This document shows positions 4,064-28,136 of a stretch of DNA of 64,000 nt, piece by piece. The notes under the pieces were generated by a model. That model did no database searches. It was not told where the DNA came from and saw only the letters and a list, made by a program, of their open reading frames with translations. Position 1 is the stretch's first letter. Each line of letters opens with the position of its first letter. The position numbers and the translations under genes were made by a program. Origin of the DNA: Deltaproteobacteria bacterium tcs-42 (GTDB lineage: Bacteria > Desulfobacterota > Desulfuromonadia > Desulfuromonadales > Geopsychrobacteraceae); NCBI GenBank assembly GCA_002049545.1, contig LLYT01000001.1, positions 5,605-69,604 on the forward strand, written 5' to 3'.

Positions 4064-4133
4064 CCGCCAATTTTCTTGACAAGACAGGACGAATAAAAGA
4101 TAATTCGCGGCGTTTGAAGAAACAAAACAATAA

Positions 4134-4210
4134 CGGGATGTGGCGCAGTCTGGTAGCGCACTTGACTGGGGGTCAAGGGGCCGGAGGTTCAAATCCTCTC
4201 ATCCCGACCA
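4134..4210 (+). tRNA. tRNA-Pro(GGG)
   Basis: CGGGATG...CATCCCG acceptor stem, D loop GTCTGGTAG, anticodon arm CTTGA-CTGGGGG-TCAAG, GGTTCAAATCC T arm, encoded CCA end. Confidence 0.97.
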
Positions 4211-4215
4211 ATAAA

Positions 4216-4258
4216 AACAAGGACTTACCCTTTTAGGTTGAGTCCTTGTTCTGTTTTT
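4216..4258. terminator. Probable bidirectional intrinsic terminator after the tRNA
   Basis: AACAAGGACT...AGTCCTTGTT stem flanked by A and T runs, between convergent tRNA and kinase gene. Confidence 0.65.
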
Positions 4259-4274
4259 GAGTACATCTCACGTT

Positions 4275-6281
4275 TCATGATGAGGGAATATATTCAGAGT
4301 CAAGAACGGCCCTGGTTGTTTGCAGCAGCACAGATAACTTCAAGGGCTTTAAACAAAAGGCCCTCACACCAAGCTCCTTGGCAGATTTGTCGTCAATTTT
4401 TGTACTGTACCCTGTGCATAGAATTGTTGGTAGATCGGGTCTGATCTTCAGCAGCTCCTTAATTAAGTCATTACCACAAAGATCGGGCATGGTTTGATCG
4501 GTAATAACTAAATCAAAATAAGCTTGGTTAGCCGCAAACAACTTCAGCGCTTCTGTACTTTCCGTCATGGTCGTCACTTGGTAACCTGCTTGAGAAAGCA
4601 TCTGATTTCCCAATTTAGCCAACATCTCATCATCATCAATAAAAAGTATTTTTTCTGTCCCCTGGGGGAGGTCTTGATTCACGGATATCGTTTCTGCTGC
4701 CTGGGGCTGCTCTATTACAGGGAAAAAGAGTTCAAAGGTTGTCCCATTGCCGAGGCCACTTTCAAATTTTATAAATCCGCCATATTGCTCCATAATTCGA
4801 TAGACTGTCGCTAGTCCCATCCCCGTTCCGACACCAACATCTTTGGTTGTAAAAAAGGGATCAAAAATTTTCTGCTGAATTTCTTCCGACATCCCGGTGC
4901 CACTATCTCTAACACTGAGTTTGGCATAATATCCGGACTTGCACTCATGTACCGCCGGGATGTCTTGAGGCAGCAACTCAACAGTCCGCAGTGAAACTAT
5001 CAAGTCCCCCTTTTCATCCATAGCCTGTATGGCATTATTACAGAGGTTGAGAAGCATTTCTTGAATCTGTGATGAATCGGCGTTGATAGTGGCATCACCA
5101 TGACTAGATTCAATCTGCTTTTGCAGGTTAATTGTGCTGGGAATGGTCGAATTTAATAGCTTCAAGGTTTCATCAACAATTGGTGCCAGCTGAATCGGCA
5201 AGACATCCTTGTTTTCCTTACGGCTGTATAACATGATCTGTTCAATCAAGTCACGAGATCGGTGGACAGCGATTTTAGCGTTCTCAAGATAATCAACAAC
5301 ATTGCTACCTACGGGCAATTTAATCAGGCCAAGTTCAATATTCCCAAGAATAATCGCCAGATGGTTATTGAAATTATGAGCCATTCCACCAGCCAACATA
5401 CCCACCGCTTCCATTTTTTGTGATTGCAACAGTTGCTCCTGAAGCTTCTTCATCTCAGTGATATCGTGGGCAATTCCATAAATAGAGGCTATTTGACCTT
5501 GCTCATCATAATGAAAGTTAGCAGTCCACAACAGGTCATGAACACCACCGGTGATCGGGTTAACCTGACGGTTCTCGATGTTTCCCTGAATCAATTTTTT
5601 CCCCAGACAATCCTTTAGCCAGGCTTCTGTTTTTTCGCGATCGTCAGGATGGACAAACTGCAAGGCATTCTGTCCTATAAGCTGATCAAGATCAGAACCA
5701 AAAAACAATTTTCCCATATGGTTCACGTAAATCAGGTTTCCTTCTGCATCCATCTGGGTTATAAGATCTGTCGTTCCTTCCACTAGTTCCTGATAAGTTC
5801 GGGTCAGCTTTTCACGCTCGGCCATTTCTTCCTGCAGTTGAGCTGTCCGTTCCTTGACCATTGATTCAAGTTTTTTATGGTATTCTTGCAACTCCTCTTC
5901 GTTCTGTTGGCGTTTCAAAGCTAGTTCCACTGTGGTCGGAAGCACTCTGATATAAAATCCCTCTGGATCTTTAATCAGATAATCACTGGCTCCAAGCTTC
6001 ATCGCCTTAACCGCAACATCCTCATCGCCACTCCCGGTTGTGATAATAATAGGGGTTCCTTTGTAGGCATCAAACAACTCAAACGAGGTACCATCTCCAA
6101 GCATATAGTCAGAGATAATGATATCAAAATTATTCGTTTTTAATACCTCAAAAGCCTCAGCAACAGATCCGGCAATCTTATAGTCGTAGGGAAGGTTTTC
6201 GCGTTTTACGAACCGCTCAAACGACATTTGATCCACTTTGTCATCCTCAACAAGGAGAATACGGGTTGTTGCATCTGGCAT
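4275..6281 (-). CDS. Hybrid sensor histidine kinase (REC-PAS-HisKA-HATPase-REC)
   Basis: N-terminal ILLVEDD receiver, PAS, GGMAHNFNN H-box, FDPFFTTK and GTGMGL boxes, C-terminal receiver; start moved to ATG 6281 (GGAGG RBS). Confidence 0.9.
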   Translation of the reverse strand: MPDATTRILLVEDDKVDQMSFERFVKRENLPYDYKIAGSVAEAFEVLKTNNFDIIISDYMLGDGTSFELFDAYKGTPIIITTGSGDEDVAVKAMKLGASDYLIKDPEGFYIRVLPTTVELALKRQQNEEELQEYHKKLESMVKERTAQLQEEMAEREKLTRTYQELVEGTTDLITQMDAEGNLIYVNHMGKLFFGSDLDQLIGQNALQFVHPDDREKTEAWLKDCLGKKLIQGNIENRQVNPITGGVHDLLWTANFHYDEQGQIASIYGIAHDITEMKKLQEQLLQSQKMEAVGMLAGGMAHNFNNHLAIILGNIELGLIKLPVGSNVVDYLENAKIAVHRSRDLIEQIMLYSRKENKDVLPIQLAPIVDETLKLLNSTIPSTINLQKQIESSHGDATINADSSQIQEMLLNLCNNAIQAMDEKGDLIVSLRTVELLPQDIPAVHECKSGYYAKLSVRDSGTGMSEEIQQKIFDPFFTTKDVGVGTGMGLATVYRIMEQYGGFIKFESGLGNGTTFELFFPVIEQPQAAETISVNQDLPQGTEKILFIDDDEMLAKLGNQMLSQAGYQVTTMTESTEALKLFAANQAYFDLVITDQTMPDLCGNDLIKELLKIRPDLPTILCTGYSTKIDDKSAKELGVRAFCLKPLKLSVLLQTTRAVLDSEYIPSS

Positions 6282-18519: not shown

Positions 18520-21414
18520 ATGACGCCCGCACCCGAAGCGGAAGCGCGTGTAAAGATCGATGAGTTGCTTACGGCAGCCGGATGGGATGTGCAGGACATG
18601 AATGCTGTCAACATCCATGCTGCTCGTGGTGTGGCTATTCGTGAATTCCCTCTGGCTTCTGGCCATGGTTTTGCTGATTACTTGCTTTATGTTGACGGCA
18701 AGGCCTCAGGCATCATCGAAGCGAAAAAGGTCGGCACCACGCTGACCGGGATTGAAATCCAGTCCGATAAATACACCAAAGGTCTTCCCGCAGGCCTCCC
18801 GCGCTGGCACAATCCGCTGCCATTCTCCTATCAGTCAACCGGGGTTGAAAATCGCTTCACCAACGGCCTCGACCCCAATCCCCGCTCACGCAACGTCTTT
18901 GCTTTTCATCGGCCGGAACAGCTTGCCAGCCTCATTGGCTCTGCAATTGTGGATCAGGGACTGCCTGCCGATCTGGGTGGAGCATCGTTTGCCGCTGAAA
19001 CTCTGCCGCAAACCTTCCTTGCCCGCCTGCAGAAGATGCCGCCATTAGTTGAAGAAGGTCTCTGGCCGGCTCAGATCAAAGCGATTACCAACCTCGAAGC
19101 TTCTCTGCGTGCCAATCATCCACGTTCGCTGATTCAGATGGCGACCGGTAGCGGTAAGACGTTCACCGCCATCAACTTCATCTACCGGTTGATCAAGTTT
19201 GCCGGGGCGCGGCGGGTGCTGTTCCTGGTCGATCGGGGCAACCTTGGGCGGCAGACCCTCAAGGAATTTCAACAATACGTTTCTCCCTACAACAACTTCA
19301 AGTTCAGTGAAGAGTACATCGTCCAGCATCTCAACTCGAACGTCCTCGATACCACCGCACGAGTGTCTATCTGCACCATCCAGCGACTCTATTCGATGCT
19401 CAAAGGACGTGACCTGCCCGAAGATCTGGATGAGGAATCGGTCGAGTTTGGGAGTTTGTTCAAGGAACCGGAGCCGATTGAGTACAACCCCGATATTCCT
19501 ATTGGCACTTTTGATGTTATCGTCACCGACGAGTGCCATCGTTCCATTTACAACCTCTGGCGGCAAGTGTTGGAATATTTTGATGCCTCCCTCATCGGTC
19601 TTACCGCCACCCCCAGCAAGCAGACCTTCGGTTTTTTCAATCAGAATCTGGTGATGGAGTACGGCCACGAACACGCCGTCGCCGATGGGGTCAATGTCAA
19701 CTACGATGTCTATCGCATTAAGACCGCCATTACAGAACAGGGCGGAGAAGTTGAGGCTGGTTATTACGTCGACAAGCGTGACCGTGACACCCGCCAGGTG
19801 CGTTGGGAGCAGTTGGATGATGATTTTGCCTACGAGGCCAAGCAGCTTGATCGGGATGTGTTTGCCGTTGACCAGATTCGCACGGTGATTCAGACCTACC
19901 GGAACAAACTGTTCAGCGAAATTTTCCCTGGTCGAACCGAGGTGCCAAAAACGCTGATTTTTGCCAAGGATGATTCCCACGCCGAGGATATCGTCAAAAT
20001 TGTCCGTGAGGAGTTCGGCAAGGGGAACGACTTTGCCCAGAAGATCACCTATCGTACTACTGGCGCCAAGCCGGAAGATCTGATTGCCTCATTTCGTAAT
20101 AGTTATTTCCCCCGCATTGCCGTCACTGTCGATATGATCGCCACCGGCACCGACATCAAGGCGTGTGAGTGTGTTTTCTTCATGCGTACCGTCAAGTCCC
20201 GCGCTTATTTTGAGCAGATGAAGGGTCGCGGGGTGCGGATCATCAATGACAACGACCTGCAAGCGGTGACCCCCGATGCTGTCACCAAAGATCATTTCAT
20301 CATTGTCGATGCCGTTGGTGTTTGTGAGATGGATCAGACCGATTCACGCCCCATGGAGCGCAAGAAGAATGTCGGTTTCGAAAAACTGCTGCAGGCGGTT
20401 GCTTTCGGCAATGCGGAAGCCGAGGTGATATCATCCGTCGCCGCCCGTCTGGCGCGGATGGAGAAGAAACTGACCGCCGAAGAGCATCAGCAGGTGGATA
20501 AGCTGCTCGACGGCAAAAGCCTCAAACAGCTTACCGGTGATCTGGTCGATGCCCTTAATCCGGATAATCATATCAGTGAGGTTTACCTGCGCCGAGCGGA
20601 GCAAGGCAGGCAGGCCGATACAACCGACCCGACACCGGAGGAAATTAAACAATCCGCCATTAAGCTGGTCGGTGAAACGGTTAAACCGCTCTGTAACCCG
20701 AATCTGCGTGAGCTGTTGCTGGAGATCAAAAAGAAGAACGAGCAGATTATCGACACGGTCAGTCCCGATACGCTCATTTTCGCTGGTTTTACAGAGGAGA
20801 AGGCCAAGGGCGTGGTCGAGTCGTTTGAGCAGTTTATCGCTGACAACAAAGATGAGATCACCGCATTGCAGGTACTGTACAGCAAGCCGTACAAGCAGCG
20901 GTTACGGTTTGAGGATGTACGTGAGTTGGCAGAGAAGCTGGTTGCCCAAGTGGAACAGTTGCGGGTTTACCAAACCCATCCGCAAGATTGGGAAAAACGG
21001 GTGCCGAATGAGCTGTGGCAGGCTTACCAGAAGCTGGAAGCAAGCAAAGTACGTGGCGCTGCAGCCAGCCATATTTTGACCGATCTGGTGTCACTGGTCC
21101 GTTTTGCCATGCATCAGGAGAATGAGTTGGTACCGTTTCCTGAGCGGGTCAATGCTAATTTCAAGGCATGGATGGCACAGCAGGAAAGCTCGCCTGCGCC
21201 CGGAGGGCAGGTAGGCGGCAAAAGCTTTACCGATGAGCAGCGCAAGTGGCTGGAGATGATTCGTGACCACATTGCCGCGAATCTGCTGATTGAGACGGAT
21301 GATTTTGATTATGCGCCTTTTGCGCAAGAAGGTGGGATAGGGAAGGTTTGGCAATTGTTTGGGGATGATTTGAGTAAGATACTTGATGAATTGAATGAGG
21401 CATTGGCGGCGTGA
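18520..21414 (+). CDS. hsdR: Type I restriction enzyme R subunit (EcoEI/EcoAI-like)
   Basis: ADYLL...IIEAKK nuclease motif, MATGSGKT Walker A, DECHR, EcoEI-type C-terminus; GGGAG RBS. Confidence 0.92.
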   Translation: MTPAPEAEARVKIDELLTAAGWDVQDMNAVNIHAARGVAIREFPLASGHGFADYLLYVDGKASGIIEAKKVGTTLTGIEIQSDKYTKGLPAGLPRWHNPLPFSYQSTGVENRFTNGLDPNPRSRNVFAFHRPEQLASLIGSAIVDQGLPADLGGASFAAETLPQTFLARLQKMPPLVEEGLWPAQIKAITNLEASLRANHPRSLIQMATGSGKTFTAINFIYRLIKFAGARRVLFLVDRGNLGRQTLKEFQQYVSPYNNFKFSEEYIVQHLNSNVLDTTARVSICTIQRLYSMLKGRDLPEDLDEESVEFGSLFKEPEPIEYNPDIPIGTFDVIVTDECHRSIYNLWRQVLEYFDASLIGLTATPSKQTFGFFNQNLVMEYGHEHAVADGVNVNYDVYRIKTAITEQGGEVEAGYYVDKRDRDTRQVRWEQLDDDFAYEAKQLDRDVFAVDQIRTVIQTYRNKLFSEIFPGRTEVPKTLIFAKDDSHAEDIVKIVREEFGKGNDFAQKITYRTTGAKPEDLIASFRNSYFPRIAVTVDMIATGTDIKACECVFFMRTVKSRAYFEQMKGRGVRIINDNDLQAVTPDAVTKDHFIIVDAVGVCEMDQTDSRPMERKKNVGFEKLLQAVAFGNAEAEVISSVAARLARMEKKLTAEEHQQVDKLLDGKSLKQLTGDLVDALNPDNHISEVYLRRAEQGRQADTTDPTPEEIKQSAIKLVGETVKPLCNPNLRELLLEIKKKNEQIIDTVSPDTLIFAGFTEEKAKGVVESFEQFIADNKDEITALQVLYSKPYKQRLRFEDVRELAEKLVAQVEQLRVYQTHPQDWEKRVPNELWQAYQKLEASKVRGAAASHILTDLVSLVRFAMHQENELVPFPERVNANFKAWMAQQESSPAPGGQVGGKSFTDEQRKWLEMIRDHIAANLLIETDDFDYAPFAQEGGIGKVWQLFGDDLSKILDELNEALAA

Positions 21415-22832
21415 GCAATAAGCAAAAAGAACTCCCTCAGACTTTGCCACGTTGGGAAGTGCCTGACAGTTGGAAATGGGTCAGTCTTGCTGATGTTGGG
21501 CAGGTTATTACAGGTAATACCCCTCCGACTTCTGACAAAAATAATTATGGGAATGATATCCCCTATGTAAAACCCCCGGAACTGGTGGATCGTGGGATTT
21601 GGACAACGCCCAATGGTTTGTCTGAAAAGGGTGCTTCCATTGCAAGAACCCTTCCTGCTGGTGCTGTACTTGTCTCTTGTATTGGCGGCCTTGGGAAAAC
21701 GGGTCTTGCAAAAGTACCAGTCGCATTCAATCAACAAATTAACGCAATCATTTTCAATGAGTGTGTCATTCCTGAATATGGTTTCTACTATGCTCAAACC
21801 TTAAATGAATGGCTCCAGGGGGTTTCCTCTGCGACTACTCTTCCGATAGTAAATAAGGGTAAATTTCAAAGAGCACCAATTCCTATTGCTCCTCCAGAGC
21901 AACAAAAAAGCATCGTTGCGGAAATCGAAAAGCAATTCTCCCGCCTCGACGAAGCCGTCGCCAATCTCAAGCGCGTCAAGGCCAACCTCAAACGCTACAA
22001 AGCCGCCGTCCTCAAAGCCGCCGTCGAAGGCAAGCTCACCGAAGAATGGCGTAAACAAAACCCCGATGTTGAACCAGCCGAGAAACTGCTGGAGCGGATT
22101 CTTGCCGAACGGCGTGAGAAATGGCAGGGGAGAGGGAAGTACAAAGAACCCGCTGCGCCGGATACCACCGATCTGCCGGAATTGCCTGAGGGGTGGGGTT
22201 GGTCCAACTTTGAGCAGCTCTCAGAAGCGATTCCCAATTCGCTTAAGGCTGGCCCATTTGGATCAGCTTTAAAGAAGTCCTTTTATGTTCCAGAAGGTTA
22301 TAAGGTTTATGGTCAGGAGCAAGTCATACGCGAAGACCCATATTATGGTGACTACTTCATTGACGAAGAACGTTATGAAAGCCTTAAATCTTGCGCCATC
22401 AAGCCGGGAGATATGCTTATAAGCTTGGTTGGGACAATTGGTCGTGTACTGATTTTGCCAGAAGATAGCGAGCCGGGAATAATCAATCCTCGCTTAGTAA
22501 AAATAAGTCTAAATACAGATATTGTTGAGCCTTTGTATATCAAGATTTTTCTCCAATCTCCGTTTGTAAAATACCTCTTCGCCCTGGCTTCCCATGGTGG
22601 AACTATGGATATTTTAAATCTTGGAATCTTGAAGGGAATACCTGTCCCTATTCCGCCTCTTCTAGAGCAAAAAGCAATATTGAATGAATTCGCTAGTTTT
22701 TCTTCGGTTGAGGAGAGATTGGAAGATACGGTGGGGGCAAATCAGGCGAGAAGTAATAGGTTGCGTCAGTCAATTTTGAAAAAAGCTTTCTCCGGTCAAC
22801 TGCTGCCAAGTTCTTACGTCGCTGAGAAGTAA
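21411..22832 (+). CDS. hsdS: Type I RM specificity subunit with two TRDs
   Basis: IPIAPPEQQKSIVAEIEKQFSRLD central region; PVPIPPLLEQ...LRQSILKKAFSG C-terminal region; GTG start overlaps hsdR stop. Confidence 0.92.
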   Translation: MSNKQKELPQTLPRWEVPDSWKWVSLADVGQVITGNTPPTSDKNNYGNDIPYVKPPELVDRGIWTTPNGLSEKGASIARTLPAGAVLVSCIGGLGKTGLAKVPVAFNQQINAIIFNECVIPEYGFYYAQTLNEWLQGVSSATTLPIVNKGKFQRAPIPIAPPEQQKSIVAEIEKQFSRLDEAVANLKRVKANLKRYKAAVLKAAVEGKLTEEWRKQNPDVEPAEKLLERILAERREKWQGRGKYKEPAAPDTTDLPELPEGWGWSNFEQLSEAIPNSLKAGPFGSALKKSFYVPEGYKVYGQEQVIREDPYYGDYFIDEERYESLKSCAIKPGDMLISLVGTIGRVLILPEDSEPGIINPRLVKISLNTDIVEPLYIKIFLQSPFVKYLFALASHGGTMDILNLGILKGIPVPIPPLLEQKAILNEFASFSSVEERLEDTVGANQARSNRLRQSILKKAFSGQLLPSSYVAEK

Positions 22833-22843
22833 AGGGGTTTGCT

Positions 22844-23545
22844 ATGAAATCTGAAAAGCTATGTCACATCAATATTTATTGCGACGAAAGCAGGCACACT
22901 TCTAACAGTGAAGATCCCTATATGGTTATTGGCGCTCTCGCCTGTACGCGTGAAAAAAAACAGGAAATTTATCACGTCATAAACCTGCTAAGAAAAAAGT
23001 ACAATGTTTGGAAAGAATTCGGCTGGAAAACTTTGTCGCCAAGTCGGAAGGATTTTTATTGGGAACTGCTTGAGCTTTTCCGTAATTCTGCTGATTTGAG
23101 TTTTCGCTGTCTTGTAGTCGATAGGAATGTTCTGGATCATGAGCAATACAGCGACGGTGATTCAGAGCTTGGTTTTTACAAGCTTTATTACCAGATGTTA
23201 GTGCATTGGTTGCAGCCGCAATGTGCTTATCACCTTTATCTTGATTGGCAGCAGAACAGAGAACAGGGACGTTTTCGGGATTTAGGTCATATTCTAGAGC
23301 GAAAGCTTTCTGGCCGAGCCAAAATTGAATGTCTTGAGCCGGTAAGCTCCAAAGAGCAGCACCTTGTCCAATTGTGTGATCTGTTTATTGGGGCGGTTGG
23401 ATACGCTTGGAATACCAGGGCGGGAAGTGACACCAAGGTTGAGTTTTGCAATGCATTGGCCGCGAACATGGAAATGTCTTCTTTGAAGGTGAGTACCTAC
23501 AAAAGTGAACAGAAATTCAATATCTTTCATTTTATAGGTCGCTGA
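22844..23545 (+). CDS. DUF3800 domain protein (RNase H-like acidic motifs)
   Basis: IYCDES N-terminal motif, YLD mid motif, VQLCDLFIGA C-terminal motif. Confidence 0.8.
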   Translation: MKSEKLCHINIYCDESRHTSNSEDPYMVIGALACTREKKQEIYHVINLLRKKYNVWKEFGWKTLSPSRKDFYWELLELFRNSADLSFRCLVVDRNVLDHEQYSDGDSELGFYKLYYQMLVHWLQPQCAYHLYLDWQQNREQGRFRDLGHILERKLSGRAKIECLEPVSSKEQHLVQLCDLFIGAVGYAWNTRAGSDTKVEFCNALAANMEMSSLKVSTYKSEQKFNIFHFIGR

Positions 23546-23546
23546 A

Positions 23547-24065
23547 ATGTCTGAACATCTCTGGTCTTTACTGAGGCTAAAGGCTGAATCGGGTGATGAA
23601 GTAAAGCAGGCATATTTTAAGAAATATCTTGAAATCTATGTACGCACTTCCGATGGGCAAACGGTCGAAATTTTCGATTGGTTAGGCAATCGAATTTTTT
23701 TCAATCCGCATTTTAATTCTTTTGATCACGCGTTTACTGAGAACAGGAATTACCGTCATAGTCATGGAGTGCATTCAAAAAAGTTATGTAAAAACCGTGC
23801 GAGACGGCTTCTCTGGATAAAGGAAACTCTCAAAGGAGAAGTAGGGACGATTGAGCGTCGGCAAGAGTTTCGAGAAGACAGTCGAGGGCGGATGAAAAAG
23901 AGACGGACTCTGGTTGTGTTGGAAGAGCTATATGTAGTTGTTCTGGAGGAGAGAGAGGGGCGCAATGGGTATGATTTTGTTTCCGCATTCCCTGCTGACG
24001 CAGATTATCTTCGGAAAATACGAAAAAGAAGTACTCTGCTGGAAACAAAAAAGCCCCAGTCTTAA
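23547..24065 (+). CDS. Basic hypothetical protein, possibly BECR/RelE-fold RNase
   Basis: 172 aa, Arg/Lys-rich; FDHAF, RARRLLWIK, YVVVLE, FVSAFP resemble PBECR-type nucleases from memory; starts 1 nt after the DUF3800 stop. Confidence 0.5.
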   Translation: MSEHLWSLLRLKAESGDEVKQAYFKKYLEIYVRTSDGQTVEIFDWLGNRIFFNPHFNSFDHAFTENRNYRHSHGVHSKKLCKNRARRLLWIKETLKGEVGTIERRQEFREDSRGRMKKRRTLVVLEELYVVVLEEREGRNGYDFVSAFPADADYLRKIRKRSTLLETKKPQS

Positions 24066-24129
24066 CGGCGACTGAGGCGCTGCCACGGTCCTGAGCCTTA
24101 AGCAAAGGGCCAACAGCCTTACGGCTTAA
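24043..24129 (-). ncRNA. Predicted ~85-nt small RNA convergent on the 23547-24065 gene
   Basis: Own sigma70-like promoter upstream, two hairpins, intrinsic terminator (fully paired with a U-G wobble only on the minus strand, followed by TTTTTTGTTT). Confidence 0.6.
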
Positions 24130-24134
24130 TTTAA

Positions 24135-24163
24135 ATATTACCCGACCTCGGCTTTCTGTGCAA
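24135..24163 (-). promoter_or_regulatory. sigma70-type promoter TTGCAC-N17-TAATAT for the predicted sRNA
   Basis: Plus strand ATATTA 24135-24140, 17-bp spacer, GTGCAA 24158-24163. Confidence 0.6.
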
Positions 24164-24209
24164 CAAAAATGTTGATTCAGTAAACAACCGACTCAAATGG
24201 ACAATAGAT

Positions 24210-24314
24210 ATGATTCCTGCAGCAACCATGTTAATACTCTGGAATTATTGTAATGCCCTCCCTGTCTGCCTCATTGTTTTCAGCGCGGGCAATCGCGATT
24301 TTTCGTGGAAGTAG
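24210..24314 (+). pseudogene. Degenerate hsdM 5' remnant #1 with a 33-nt palindromic insert
   Basis: MIPAATMLILWNYCNAL-[11 codons]-RD aligns to MTPAAIVSKLWNYCNVLRD of intact hsdM. Confidence 0.7.
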
Positions 24315-24420
24315 AATACGACACCTGTAGCTATTGTTAAGTAAGTATTGGATTTTGTTCGGGACACAATATTTGATTGCCCGGATCAATAAACGCTTAC
24401 GGCGGATAAAGGTATGATAA

Positions 24421-25422
24421 ATGAACCCTCAAACTGAACAGAATGAGATTGTTCTCTTTCAGACGGACGATGGTCAGACGCAGCTTAAAGTTCAGCTTGA
24501 CCATGATACCGTCTGGCTGAGTCTCTATCAAATGGCAGAGCTTTTTCAGCGGGACAAATCAGTCGTCTCCAGGCACGTGAACGCTATTTTTAAAAGTGGC
24601 GAATTGGTGCGAGAGACAACTGTTGCAAAAAATGCAACAGTTCAGATTGAAGGCGGGCGTGAGGTCCAAAGGAGCATCGAATACTTTAATCTTGATGTTA
24701 TTATCTCCGTCGGCTATCGCGTCAATTCCAAACTCGGAATTCTGTTCCGCCAATGGGCTACCCGCGTTTTACGTGACCACCTGGTCAAAGGCTACAGCAT
24801 CAATGAACAGCGTTTGCGTGAAGAGACTGCCAAGTTGCGGGAAATGCAACAGACTGTCGATTTGCTTGCACGCACCCTGACCACTCAGGAATTGATCACT
24901 GCCACCGGTAAAGATGTGTTGCGTGTCATCAGTGACTATGCCTACGCACTGGCCACGTTGGATCGTTATGATCACGGCAGCTTGATTATTGATAAAACCA
25001 CCGCCAAAGTCTTGCATGTCATCGACTACGAGGAAGGCATTGCTCTGGTCAGGTCGATGAAAGGGGAGTTTGACGGTCTGTTTGGCATCGAAAAAGATCA
25101 GGGGTTCAAGAGTGCTCTTGGCACCATCTACCAGACATTTGATGGTAAAGAACTCTATCCCAGTGTCGAGGAAAAAGCCGCCAATCTGCTCTATTTTGTG
25201 GTGAAAAATCACGCATTCAGTGATGGCAACAAGCGTATAGCTGCGGCAATATTTATCTATTTTCTCGCTGCCAACGGTATTTTGTATCGTCCCGATGGCT
25301 CCAAGCGCCTTGCCGACAACGCTTTAGTGGCATTGACCCTGTTGATTGCCGAAAGTCGGCCTGAAGAGAAAGAGACGATTGTCAAAGTCATCATCAACCT
25401 TATCAACCGGAGTAACGACTAA
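24421..25422 (+). CDS. RhuM-like DNA-binding domain fused to Doc-type Fic domain
   Basis: TVWLSLYQMAELF, YFNLDVIISVGYRVNS (RhuM-like); HAFSDGNKRIA (Doc-type motif). Confidence 0.85.
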   Translation: MNPQTEQNEIVLFQTDDGQTQLKVQLDHDTVWLSLYQMAELFQRDKSVVSRHVNAIFKSGELVRETTVAKNATVQIEGGREVQRSIEYFNLDVIISVGYRVNSKLGILFRQWATRVLRDHLVKGYSINEQRLREETAKLREMQQTVDLLARTLTTQELITATGKDVLRVISDYAYALATLDRYDHGSLIIDKTTAKVLHVIDYEEGIALVRSMKGEFDGLFGIEKDQGFKSALGTIYQTFDGKELYPSVEEKAANLLYFVVKNHAFSDGNKRIAAAIFIYFLAANGILYRPDGSKRLADNALVALTLLIAESRPEEKETIVKVIINLINRSND

Positions 25423-25427
25423 ATATT

Positions 25428-25661
25428 ATGACCTCAGCTGCAATTGTATCCAAACTTTGGAATTTCTGTAACGTTCTTCGCGACGATGGCATGAGCTACC
25501 TGTCTGCGTGCGGTCACGCACAGGCAGGCGGCGACTACGTCCCTGCCTGCATTTCATGCGCAGGCAAGGAACAGTTCACCTATCTGCTTTTTCTCAAAAT
25601 GGCAGACGAGCGAACCAAACCGCCCTACAACCAGCTAAGCAATATCCCGAGTCATTGTTGA
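25428..25661 (+). pseudogene. hsdM 5' remnant #2 with two in-frame palindromic inserts (30 and 27 nt)
   Basis: Collinear with the first ~56 codons of intact hsdM apart from inserts LSACGHAQAG and PACISCAGK; homology stops just before the fic gene. Confidence 0.9.
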
Positions 25662-25662
25662 T

Positions 25663-26304
25663 ATGATGTCCCCTTCAGTTCGCTACGACACATCCGGCTT
25701 GCCGGAAGACCAATATGAACCCGGTTCAGATAGATCTGTTCTGAAAAATCTGCGTGGAATTACCTCTTCGGAAGAGATGCAGATTGTTGAGACAGAGGAA
25801 TTGTGGCGAACACAAGAATATCTATTGGGAGAGATTGAACAAGATCAGAAATTCACTGTTAATGATATCTATGAAATGCATCGAATCTGGCTCGAAACGG
25901 TTTATTCGTGGGCCGGAAAAGATCGTCAGGTCAATATCAGCAAAGGCGGGTTCGATTTCGCCATGGCTCGGGTGATTCCGAACATGATGGCGGAGTTTGA
26001 GCGGAAACAGTTGGCGGTACATACCCCGTGCCAATGTACCGATATAAATGAAATCGCTCAGGCTCTGGCGCAAGTGCATGTAGAGCTGATGCTGATACAC
26101 CCCTTTCGTGAGGGGAACGGTAGACTCGGTCGTTTATTTGCCACACTGATGGCATTGCAGGCAGGTTTGCCGCTACTTGATTTCAGTGATTGGTCAGGAT
26201 TAAAGAGAGAAGAATACTTTGCTGCGGTTCGTGCAGGCATGGATATGAAATATGATCCGATGAGGCAACTATTTCTTGAGGTGATAGAAGGTTCAGGCAG
26301 ATAA
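25663..26304 (+). CDS. Fic-domain AMP-transferase (class I FicT-like toxin)
   Basis: Canonical HPFREGNGRLGR motif; YEPGS...VLKNLRGI N-terminus. Confidence 0.9.
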   Translation: MMSPSVRYDTSGLPEDQYEPGSDRSVLKNLRGITSSEEMQIVETEELWRTQEYLLGEIEQDQKFTVNDIYEMHRIWLETVYSWAGKDRQVNISKGGFDFAMARVIPNMMAEFERKQLAVHTPCQCTDINEIAQALAQVHVELMLIHPFREGNGRLGRLFATLMALQAGLPLLDFSDWSGLKREEYFAAVRAGMDMKYDPMRQLFLEVIEGSGR

Positions 26305-26317
26305 CGGAAGAGGCCGG

Positions 26318-26536
26318 TTAAGATTTCTTTGAGGTGTTGTAGTTCGTCCCGGAGGTAGATTCGTGGACGCAGTTTGTCGAGCTGCTGTTCTTGGATACGA
26401 ACTGTCCCGTAACAGCATCACGCTTGACGCTAATCCCTTCAATTGCGGAAGACGATTCTATGTTGCGAGTCATCGATTTTTCACGAATTGAGCGGTTTTG
26501 AAGATGTCGATTGGTTGTTAATAGTGACTTTTTCAT
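26318..26536 (-). CDS. Small putative Fic antitoxin (FicA-like)
   Basis: 72 aa with SSAIEG matching the (S/T)xxxE(G/N) inhibitory motif; ends 13 nt from the fic stop. Confidence 0.6.
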   Translation of the reverse strand: MKKSLLTTNRHLQNRSIREKSMTRNIESSSAIEGISVKRDAVTGQFVSKNSSSTNCVHESTSGTNYNTSKKS

Positions 26537-26600
26537 GTCGCTAATTATACAAGAAGCAACAATTTTTATCAGTAAAATAATAAACAGGACAGGAACTTAA

Positions 26601-28136
26601 ATGACACCTGCAGCAATCGTATCAAAACTCTGGAACTACTGTAACGTCCTCCGCGACGACGGCATGAGCTACGGCGACTATGTCGAACAGCTCACCTATC
26701 TGCTTTTTCTCAAAATGGCAGACGAACGGACCAAGCCGCCGTACAATCAACCGAGCAATATCCCGGCTGAATATTCATGGGCAACACTGGCGAAGAAGGA
26801 CGGTGACGAACTGTTCGACCACTACCGCCATACCCTGGAAAACCTCGGCAACGAAAAAGGTCTGCTCGGTCTGATCTTTAACAAGTCGCAGAACAAATTC
26901 CAAGACCCTGCCAAACTGCGTCGCCTGATTGTCGATTTGATCGACAGTGAAAACTGGTCGGTGATGAGCGCCGATGTCAAAGGTGATGCCTACGAGGGGC
27001 TGCTGGAGAAAAATGCTCAGGACACCAAGAGCGGTGCCGGGCAGTATTTTACCCCGCGTCCGCTGATTCAGGCGATAGTTGATGTGGTTGCTCCCAAACC
27101 GGGGGAGACCATCAGTGACCCGGCCTGCGGAACCGGTGGTTTCTTGCTTGCGGCGCACGACAGCCTGGTCGACAACCATCCGCACATGACCAAAGACGAG
27201 CGGAAAAAGCTTAAGGAGGGGACCTTCAAGGGTTGGGAGTTGGTGCAGTCGACAGCACGGCTCTGTGCCATGAACCTGATGCTGCATGGTATCGGTGCCG
27301 GTAATGGCAGTACGAATCTTCCTTTAGTCGTCTCTGATTCTCTAGCGGCTGATCCGGGCGACCGTTTCGACATCATCCTCACCAATCCCCCCTTCGGAAA
27401 GAAGAGCAGTACTACCATTGTTGGTGAAGACGGCAAGGTTGCCAAAGAGAAGGAAACCGTTGAGCGTGACGACTTCTGGGCAACAACCTCAAACAAGCAG
27501 CTCAACTTCATCCAGCACGTCAAAACCCTTCTCAAACAGCATGGCCGTGCCGCCGTAGTTGTGCCGGACAACGTGCTGTTCGAAGGCGGAGCAGGGGAGA
27601 CCATCCGCCGCAAGCTGCTGCACGAATGCGATGTTCACACCATCCTGCGTCTGCCGACCGGACTCTTCTACGCCCAAGGGGTCAAAGCGAACGTTATCTT
27701 TTTCGACCGCAAACCAGCCAGTGAAACGCCCTGGACAAAAAAGCTATGGATTTACGATCTGCGCACCAATACGCACTTCACCCTGAAAACCAATCCGCTC
27801 AAACGCAGTGATCTGGATGATTTTGTCGCTTGCTATTCTGCGGGGAACTTGAAAGCTCGCAAACCGACTTGGACGGAAAATATGAAGGACGACTTGCCTG
27901 CGCAAAACGACAGTTTTGCAGGCAGGTGGCGCAGTTACGACTACGAAGACTTGATCGCCCGCGACAAAGCCAGCCTCGATATCTTCTGGCTCAAGGATGA
28001 TTCGCTGGAGGATTCAGACAACCTTCCAGAGCCGGGTGTACTGGCTGCAGAGATTGTTGAAGATCTGCAGGCGGCTTTGGAGCAGTTTAGGGAGATTGCT
28101 GAGGATTTGGGCGAAGACGAGTTTGTTGCCGAATAA
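26601..28136 (+). CDS. hsdM: Type I RM N6-adenine methyltransferase
   Basis: GQYFTPR, DPACGTGGFL (motif I), NPPF (motif IV); AGGA RBS. Confidence 0.95.
   Translation: MTPAAIVSKLWNYCNVLRDDGMSYGDYVEQLTYLLFLKMADERTKPPYNQPSNIPAEYSWATLAKKDGDELFDHYRHTLENLGNEKGLLGLIFNKSQNKFQDPAKLRRLIVDLIDSENWSVMSADVKGDAYEGLLEKNAQDTKSGAGQYFTPRPLIQAIVDVVAPKPGETISDPACGTGGFLLAAHDSLVDNHPHMTKDERKKLKEGTFKGWELVQSTARLCAMNLMLHGIGAGNGSTNLPLVVSDSLAADPGDRFDIILTNPPFGKKSSTTIVGEDGKVAKEKETVERDDFWATTSNKQLNFIQHVKTLLKQHGRAAVVVPDNVLFEGGAGETIRRKLLHECDVHTILRLPTGLFYAQGVKANVIFFDRKPASETPWTKKLWIYDLRTNTHFTLKTNPLKRSDLDDFVACYSAGNLKARKPTWTENMKDDLPAQNDSFAGRWRSYDYEDLIARDKASLDIFWLKDDSLEDSDNLPEPGVLAAEIVEDLQAALEQFREIAEDLGEDEFVAE

Follow-up and report, generated by a model that had tools for sequence, protein, structure and literature searches.

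A conserved block of DNA in the genome of Deltaproteobacteria bacterium tcs-42 is very likely a genuine gene for a folded RNA of ~84-85 nt, which lies on the minus strand directly downstream of, and convergent with, PDC-M04, a two-gene candidate defence system defined in PADLOC. The window analysed is a stretch of 64,000 nucleotides from contig LLYT01000001.1 (positions 5,605 to 69,604 of the forward strand), and the coordinates below are those of the window. The observations on which the argument is built are a conserved sequence, a covarying fold, its strand, the position of its promoter, a strict linkage to two protein-coding genes and the existence of stand-alone copies. A preliminary description of this DNA had proposed an unannotated, independently transcribed minus-strand small RNA (sRNA) of ~85 nt, and at the sequence level this proposal is strongly supported by covariation, an invariant U·G pair, promoter position and a U-tract. 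The reading that we favour, with about even credence, is that the RNA is a third, unannotated component of PDC-M04 that works in trans as a protein ligand restraining the nuclease or nucleases of the system.

DUF3800 genes, of which PDC-M04 contains one, turn up widely, be it in defence islands, in retrons or at CRISPR loci, and the unrelated structured RNAs that neighbour them have been unexplained since 2017. The M04 locus offers a compact case, as it combines two small proteins with an RNA of ~84 nt that has a clear promoter, a fold and invariant nucleotides to mutate, and Desulfuromusa kysingii DSM 7343 is an isolate with an identical RNA. On this result, the PADLOC definition of PDC-M04 is without one component, which matters when the two genes alone are cloned for defence tests.

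The small-RNA gene and the PDC-M04 cassette

The elements of the predicted RNA gene are as follows.

24158-24163, minus strand: -35-like hexamer TTGCAC, read from the sequence
24135-24140, minus strand: -10-like hexamer TAATAT, read from the sequence, with a 17-nt spacer from the -35
~24128 to 24043-24045, minus strand: predicted small RNA of ~84 nt, with its 5' end placed near 24128 and its 3' end in the U-tract
24078-24053 (hairpin) and 24052-24043 (U-tract), minus strand: P4 terminator hairpin and U-tract, from the terminator scan

The RNA would thus be transcribed from the minus strand by way of its own σ70-type promoter and ended by its own intrinsic terminator, transcription itself being predicted from these elements. 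The promoter noted in the preliminary description (TTGCAC-N17-TAATAT, 24163-24135) reads at exactly those positions. On the minus strand, P4 consists of GCCUCAGUC (24078-24070), the loop GCCGUUAA (24069-24062) and GACUGGGGC (24061-24053), followed by UUUUUUGUUU (24052-24043). In a terminator scan of 22500-26700 it was the sole long, G+C-rich terminator-like hairpin, and was so on the minus strand only. One pair of the P4 stem is a U·G on the minus strand and a C·A on the plus strand, so the earlier statement that the stem is fully paired in one orientation alone holds, with the U·G wobble present in 57 of 57 sequences.

The RNA abuts the second of two closely spaced genes.

22844-23545, plus strand: M04A, 233 aa, DUF3800, RNase H-like fold (Pfam DUF3800 1e-12; PADLOC PDC-M04A 7.2e-75)
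23547-24065, plus strand: M04B, 172 aa, PDC-M04B (PADLOC 6.1e-73), with a weak signature of PBECR2, a BECR-fold RNase family

Both PADLOC profile matches are full length, as befits members of PDC-M04, and a single base separates the M04A stop codon (23543-23545) from the M04B start at 23547. The last codons of M04B are encoded by P4 DNA, and its stop codon TAA (24063-24065, plus strand) falls in the P4 loop, so that the 3' end of the RNA is antisense to the M04B C-terminus ...KKPQS*, as had been claimed.

DUF3800 proteins have an RNase H-like fold and are found with type VII retrons and at Cas12a2, Cas12a3 and Cas13 loci (PMC7736814, PMC10910872). PBECR2 is a Barnase-EndoU-ColicinE5/D-RelE-like (BECR) nuclease family in Pfam, to which 37 of 37 aligned M04B relatives gave weak matches (best E 2e-7). 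An AlphaFold model of M04B is confident (predicted local distance difference test 85, predicted template modelling score 0.81) and describes a globular alpha/beta protein. The family is rare, as a search through 1.8 billion proteins gave 275 cluster representatives at E<=1e-3; a literature search found no mention of PDC-M04 and, for PBECR2, gave only the original description.

Conservation of the RNA beside divergent proteins

Related loci were collected by a genome scan, which returned D. kysingii, and by a metagenome scan with protein alignment, which returned 75 more (36-64% identity). Because selection was by protein, these loci are unbiased with regard to the RNA. The D. kysingii M04B is 85% identical to that of the window. 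The predicted RNA (3584-3497 of L001 in D. kysingii) is 100% identical over 88 nt, although the coding DNA beside it is ~80% identical; both promoter hexamers are identical and the spacer between them has diverged. Homology ends ~60 nt upstream of the promoter, where hsdM directly follows in D. kysingii. Across the collection, blastn matched the element in 63 loci with identities of 86-100%. Conservation sets in exactly at 24128/24127, where the preliminary description had expected the transcript to start (near 24128), and runs to ~24042.

That description had also pointed to the 3' flanks of homologous genes as the place to seek a conserved structure, and such a structure is found there. A covariance model, R1, was built from 47 distinct sequences and matches 73 of the 77 sources with M04B homologues (45-107 bits); it has a single match in the 64-kb window (103 bits). 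All 73 RNAs are convergent with M04B, on the opposite strand and abutting its 3' end, and the M04B proteins beside them are only 31-92% identical. Three of the four sources without a match are contig-end cuts or fragments. In nearly all of the 76 related loci M04B is immediately preceded by a DUF3800 gene, and many of the cassettes are bordered by hsdS and hsdM. Searches of E. coli genomes and GenBank phages found no similar DNA.

Several metagenome loci retain an intact RNA beside a truncated M04B remnant. Two such places are L047 (2477-2841) and L074 (2461-2789), where M04B 3' fragments are truncated or frame-disrupted and the RNA and promoter are intact; one remnant adjoins an AIPR-like abortive-infection gene and the other a HigA/ImmA-like gene.

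The position of the promoter is conserved as well. When the best σ70-like match was taken in the 95 nt upstream, the end of the -10 lay 54-61 nt before P4 (39-43 nt in variants that have no P1 hairpin, described below) in 43 of 55 unique loci, and TTGACA-like hexamers occupy the equivalent position in most homologous loci. The hexamers are positionally fixed across loci and the spacers drift.

The covarying fold and the strand of the RNA

Upstream of P4, the alignment of these sequences defines the following structural elements.

24126-24115, minus strand: P1 hairpin, AGCC-GUAA-GGCU, variable and missing in some homologues
24111-24107 with 24091-24087, minus strand: P2 helix, with covariation
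24103-24101 with 24097-24095, minus strand: P3 helix, with covariation
24111-24087, minus strand: P2/P3 module, GGCCC-UUU-GCU-UAA-GGC-UCA-GGACC, a stack of two helices that has a 3x3 internal loop and a UAA loop
24085-24082, minus strand: invariant UGGC linker, which may form a pseudoknot with GCCG of the P4 loop (24069-24066)

In a model-guided alignment, 94% of cells are paired and 10 pairs show changes on both sides, counts that by their nature favour the model's own structure. In a shuffle control, 0 of 500 shuffles reached any of five observed measures, and the pairing was halved when the partners were displaced by one column; MAFFT and RNAalifold, used independently of the model, yielded P3, P4 and part of P2. 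The changes are compensatory in kind, with one P2 pair distributed as AU:24, GC:20 and UA:7 and one P3 pair present as A-U in 30 and G-C in 26 sequences. P1 has double-sided changes at all 4 pairs and a tetraloop that alternates between GNRA and UUCG. Since a subgroup without P1 has its promoter correspondingly closer, by ~15 nt, P1 is dispensable, and the core of the RNA is P2/P3, the linker and P4. P4 is nearly invariant (7 of its 9 pairs never change), and 35 of 88 alignment columns are invariant. Pairing of UGGC with GCCG is kept in 99.6% of cells, with a change of U·G to U-A in 13 sequences and a double change in one, so a pseudoknot is tentatively proposed.

Four features, namely U·G pairs, tetraloops, U-tract and promoter, place the RNA on the minus strand; GNRA and UUCG loops appear in the minus-strand orientation only, and so does the U-tract. 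Where the preliminary description fails is in the 5' structure. It gave a UUAAGC/GCUUAA stem enclosing an AAGGC/GCCCUU hairpin; these segments exist, are absent from the minimum free energy (MFE) fold and are not complementary in homologues, and the structure has an energy of -24.4 kcal/mol against -29.2 kcal/mol for the consensus fold. The promoter, terminator, U·G wobble and antisense overlap of that description all stand where it had put them. The MFE pairing of GCUGUUGG with CCGUGGCAGC was likewise discarded, as it is incompatible with the covarying P1.

The overlap of P4 with M04B shows on which molecule selection acts. M04B proteins end either in ...KKPQS*, with the stop codon in the P4 loop, or in ...PSLNGD*, with the stop codon in a P4 arm and in a different frame, and others end before P4. 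The P4 nucleotides are unchanged despite being read in at least two M04B frames, and they are also kept in phage copies where no gene codes across them. The constraint therefore acts on the RNA rather than on the protein.

Copies of the RNA apart from the cassette

Stand-alone copies were sought by a P4 pattern scan of IMG/VR followed by scoring with R1, which gave seven viral contigs at 72-78 bits. Four of these represent one type of AT-rich phage with a contractile tail (tail sheath, baseplate and DNA ligase genes), in which the RNA lies inside a tRNA array, co-oriented with it and abutting tRNA-Ser(UGA), and has a U-tract reduced to four U. A second scan, with the P2/P3 core, returned the phage contig L106, where a variant RNA directly follows tRNA-Thr in an array of nine tRNAs. 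Two phage lineages therefore carry a co-oriented copy that abuts a tRNA within a tRNA array. A position among tRNA genes suggests co-processing with tRNAs and, more speculatively, that the activity of the system is directed at tRNA. In L107 (IMG/VR), a partial match of 19 nt was considered to be due to chance.

Other RNAs share these phage neighbourhoods. HEARO RNAs (RF02033, 86-123 bits), a class associated with IscB/HNH elements, occur within the tRNA arrays, beside the M04-type RNA, in L079 (710-921), L081 (1688-1911), L082 (12754-12961) and L083 (3927-4150; M04-type RNA at 3842-3752), with no large open reading frame (ORF) attached in the stretches seen. The phage tRNA array looks like a gathering place for host-type non-coding RNAs. 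In L080 (4164-4523, minus strand), tRNA-Tyr, the M04-type RNA and an int-alpA RNA (RF02996) follow one another at the apparent border of a P4-like integrative element.

Outside viral contigs, the Vibrio cidicii plasmid CP035920.1 carries a copy (L084, 1118-1206; 75 bits) without M04 genes. It lies within ~1.5 kb that contains no ORF of >=60 aa, between phosphotransferase system genes and a pair of genes for an M48 peptidase and HsdR, and this stretch may be the remnant of a lost cassette.

A related module on the coding strand of distant cassettes

The IMG/VR relatives of the DUF3800 protein (29-40% identity) include four Firmicutes-like prophage cassettes in which a DUF3800 gene is followed by an M04B-like gene of 147 aa. 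Each has a candidate RNA just downstream of the 147-aa gene, on the coding strand, with its own promoter and terminator.

L086, ~4130-4290, plus strand: distant-cassette RNA
L087, ~4150-4300, plus strand: distant-cassette RNA
L088, ~4185-4330, plus strand: distant-cassette RNA
L100, 4152-4310, plus strand: distant-cassette RNA

These RNAs contain the P2/P3 module in the form GUCC-UYU-ACYUAnRGU-nnR-GGAYC, with a compensatory change of U-A to C-G in P3. Their 3' domain differs and consists of conserved CAAAGGUUU...GCUGAACCC...AAUCAGCG followed by a terminator. A comparison with Rfam 15 at E<=10 gave no match, and this is apparently a second undescribed RNA. Because the distant RNA is on the coding strand, the feature conserved across cassettes is the P2/P3 module and not the antisense overlap.

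Relation to known RNAs and defence systems

Rfam 15 scans of the window region, of the 151-nt core (E<=10), of the whole window and of the related loci placed the RNA in no family. The nearest class is formed by the eleven unrelated structured RNA motifs, DUF3800-I to DUF3800-XI, that were described beside DUF3800 genes by Weinberg et al. in 2017, who proposed no function for them (PMC5737381). These motifs occur in either orientation to the gene and are not 5' untranslated region elements; several have Rho-independent terminators at their 3' ends, and UAA is common in their loops (PMC5737381). The M04 RNA has every feature of this class, as it is structured, with three covarying helices, lies ~500 nt downstream of a DUF3800 gene in 73 of 77 sources, ends in a terminator (P4 and its U-tract) and has loops with UAA (P3) and UUAA (P4). 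It matches none of the DUF3800 models in Rfam 15 (RF02969, RF02968 and others) at E<=10, a comparison that covers the motifs held in Rfam, and it may equal a motif of Weinberg et al. that is absent from that database. What is new with respect to these motifs is the strict three-part linkage with a PBECR2-like gene, the overlap with the last codons and the copies in phage tRNA arrays.

Type III toxin-antitoxin (TA) systems (ToxIN, CptIN, TenpIN) resemble the M04 cassette in pairing a small structured RNA, here with a possible pseudoknot, with an RNase-like protein in an anti-phage context. Their antitoxin, however, is a set of tandem repeats upstream of the toxin and on its strand, whereas the M04 RNA is a single unit, downstream and convergent, with its own promoter; a search for tandem repeats in 22700-24500 found none. 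The type III toxin has the ToxN/AbiQ fold and M04B only a weak BECR/PBECR2 signature, and the M04 cassette differs further in always having a second protein, DUF3800. With no repeat array, the opposite strand and a different toxin fold, the M04 RNA is not a member of a type III TA family.

Among type I TA systems, several have antisense RNAs that overlap the 3' end of the toxin mRNA, such as TxpA/RatA and BsrG/SR4. The M04 RNA is similarly a convergent small RNA, complementary in its 3' part to the end of the partner mRNA. The type I toxin is a small hydrophobic peptide, however, whereas M04B has 172 aa and a globular alpha/beta model, and the M04 RNA is invariant far beyond the needs of pairing. 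Homologous RNAs are found without the gene and on the coding strand, and the overlap is not kept in related cassettes. As its partner is a globular protein of this size, the M04 system is not a type I TA system.

Type VII retrons, which consist of a reverse transcriptase and DUF3800 (PMC7736814), are, like the M04 cassette, defence-type modules in which a DUF3800 protein has a structured nucleic acid as its dedicated partner; the M04 cassette has no reverse transcriptase, and its RNA, predicted to be a plain transcript, is without msr/msd architecture. An OMEGA guide RNA, as used by TnpB and IscB, was considered and rejected, for there is no variable single-stranded segment: the only variable part, P1, is a closed hairpin, 3-4 nt precede it, and the 3' end of the RNA is the terminator.

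Proposed function of the M04 RNA

According to the favoured reading, one or both cassette proteins would recognise the invariant parts of the RNA, namely the P2/P3 module and its UAA loop, the linker UGGC and hairpin P4, and binding of the RNA would keep the nuclease or nucleases inactive until infection perturbs the complex. The relationship would be antitoxin-like, in the style of a type III system, and the phage copies in tRNA arrays would be mimics that hold the system off. Protein binding, inhibition, and nuclease activity with its target are steps that we infer. The antitoxin idea is plausible because of the weak BECR RNase signature, the RNAs kept beside truncated genes and the stand-alone copies in phages. 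An inhibitor is favoured because the partner looks BECR-like, the RNA outlives the gene, a mimic would benefit the phage and ToxIN offers a precedent, in which phages escaped by acquiring ToxI or by expansion of a pseudo-ToxI locus (PMC3475682).

A more specific form of this proposal is put forward tentatively, and with clearly less confidence, namely that PDC-M04 is a three-component abortive-infection system in which the RNA restrains a BECR-fold RNase, possibly a tRNA-cutting one, and an RNase H-like partner, and against which phages carry a mimic inside tRNA arrays that is processed out with the tRNAs. Were such a system to exist, it would supply the first function for DUF3800-associated RNAs, and RNA mimicry by phages would be a natural RNA-based anti-defence outside ToxIN. 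The copies in phage tRNA arrays make the function of the RNA a testable hypothesis of defence and counter-defence.

Several results weigh against the RNA gene or its assigned role. The promoter of the window matches the consensus at 7 of 12 positions and lies below the threshold of the promoter scan, so that taken alone it is no better than chance and its reality rests on the comparison across loci. Public sequencing runs containing this genome were searched for and none was found; runs retrieved with the RNA alone contain the conserved 80-nt core or unstranded contigs only, and for one homologous locus the covering metatranscriptome contigs have little depth, give no strand and end elsewhere than the predicted RNA does. 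One locus, L039, has an intact cassette, and the R1 search found no RNA in its 127-nt flank. On the protein side, the M04B of the window scores under the curated Pfam cut-off for PBECR2, and a Foldseek search of its model against the PDB gave no significant neighbour, the top match being a RelE-like toxin at E 0.13; with a confident model and no significant structural match, the RNase assignment draws on weak Pfam matches only. M04A and M04B were absent from the fetched DNA of the seven viral contigs, and protein-pattern scans of the whole of IMG/VR did not return these contigs either, but the contigs were inspected in part, so that divergent cassette genes may lie elsewhere on them. Finally, an activating or scaffolding RNA would yield an identical pattern of conservation.

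This last point leads to the main rival, which we consider possible, if doubtful, and in which the RNA is a positive cofactor or a sensor. It could be a scaffold for DUF3800 and M04B, or a bait whose cleavage or modification at infection activates the nucleases, in the manner of the multicopy single-stranded DNA of retrons. The evidence from conservation, linkage and structure fits such a cofactor equally well. DUF3800 is also an effector partner of type VII retrons and of some CRISPR effectors that use RNA or DNA ligands, and the many different structured RNAs that adjoin DUF3800 genes (Weinberg et al.) suggest an obligatory RNA partner. A phage, however, gains nothing from carrying an activator unless it serves as a decoy, a version that merges with the favoured reading, and retention of the RNA beside a truncated M04B suits an inhibitor better, though neither consideration is decisive.

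It is unlikely that the RNA acts as a cis-antisense, type I-like regulator, which would base-pair either with the M04B mRNA at its 3' end or with operon transcripts that read through, and control their stability or the termination of translation. In its favour, the RNA overlaps the last codons of M04B convergently, in the window as in each of the 73 sources that bear it, and the operon transcript probably carries the full complement of the RNA, because there is no plus-strand terminator just after M04B. Yet a pair that is complementary by construction needs no invariant sequence, and 35 of the 88 columns do not vary across proteins down to 31% identity; the extent and frame of the overlap vary, with some M04B genes stopping before P4; stand-alone copies have no opposing gene; the related RNA of the distant cassettes is on the coding strand; and the candidate toxin is a soluble protein of 172 aa rather than a small membrane peptide. 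Protein binding fits better than antisense action given the near-invariant sequence, the gene-less copies and the same module on the coding strand. Pairing in trans with the start regions of M04A and M04B showed no enrichment over shuffles (z -0.2 and -0.5).

That there is no RNA gene, and that the block is a terminator, an insulator or a DNA-level site for recombination or the cassette end, is highly improbable even though it lies at the 3' edge of a cassette, with D. kysingii homology ending ~60 nt further on, and the site of the cassette, from hsdS to hsdM, is known as a hot spot for insertions. Three helices with compensatory changes, a switching tetraloop and an unvarying U·G are signatures of RNA, a terminator needs neither 50 nt of conserved upstream structure nor a promoter at a fixed distance, and the phage copies are co-oriented in tRNA arrays with a weakened U-tract.

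The operon setting and other features of the window

The RNA locus is set in a type I restriction-modification operon.

18520-21414: hsdR, type I restriction operon
21411-22832: hsdS, type I restriction operon
26601-28136: hsdM, type I restriction operon

From hsdS to hsdM, the order is the DUF3800 gene, the 172-aa gene, a gap of 355 nt in which the candidate RNA lies, a gene for a RhuM/Fic-DOC protein, a 5' fragment of hsdM and a second Fic gene. The RhuM and Fic/DOC protein (24421-25422, plus strand; PADLOC PDC-S23, 2e-136) and the Fic protein (25663-26304, plus strand; PADLOC PDC-S04, 1e-74) are thus encoded between the RNA and hsdM. Because hsdM comes directly after the RNA in D. kysingii, these two genes are later insertions into the operon.

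A plus-strand terminator-like hairpin at 24284-24307, CGCGGGCAATCGCG followed by ATTTTTCGTG, lies in DNA that is absent from D. kysingii and could terminate the M04AB transcript after read-through of the whole complement of the RNA. Elsewhere in the 64-kb window, a tRNA gene at 4134-4207 (plus strand) is the sole match to Rfam at gathering level.

The hsdM fragment is an ORF of 77 aa (25428-25661, plus strand) that carries a second, internally disrupted version of the HsdM N-terminus (MT.AAIVSKLWN.CNVLRDDGMSY...LLFLKMADERTKPPYNQ), and it precedes the Fic gene and a minus-strand ORF of 72 aa (26318-26536). A cassette appears to have entered hsdM at its 5' end, duplicating the target.

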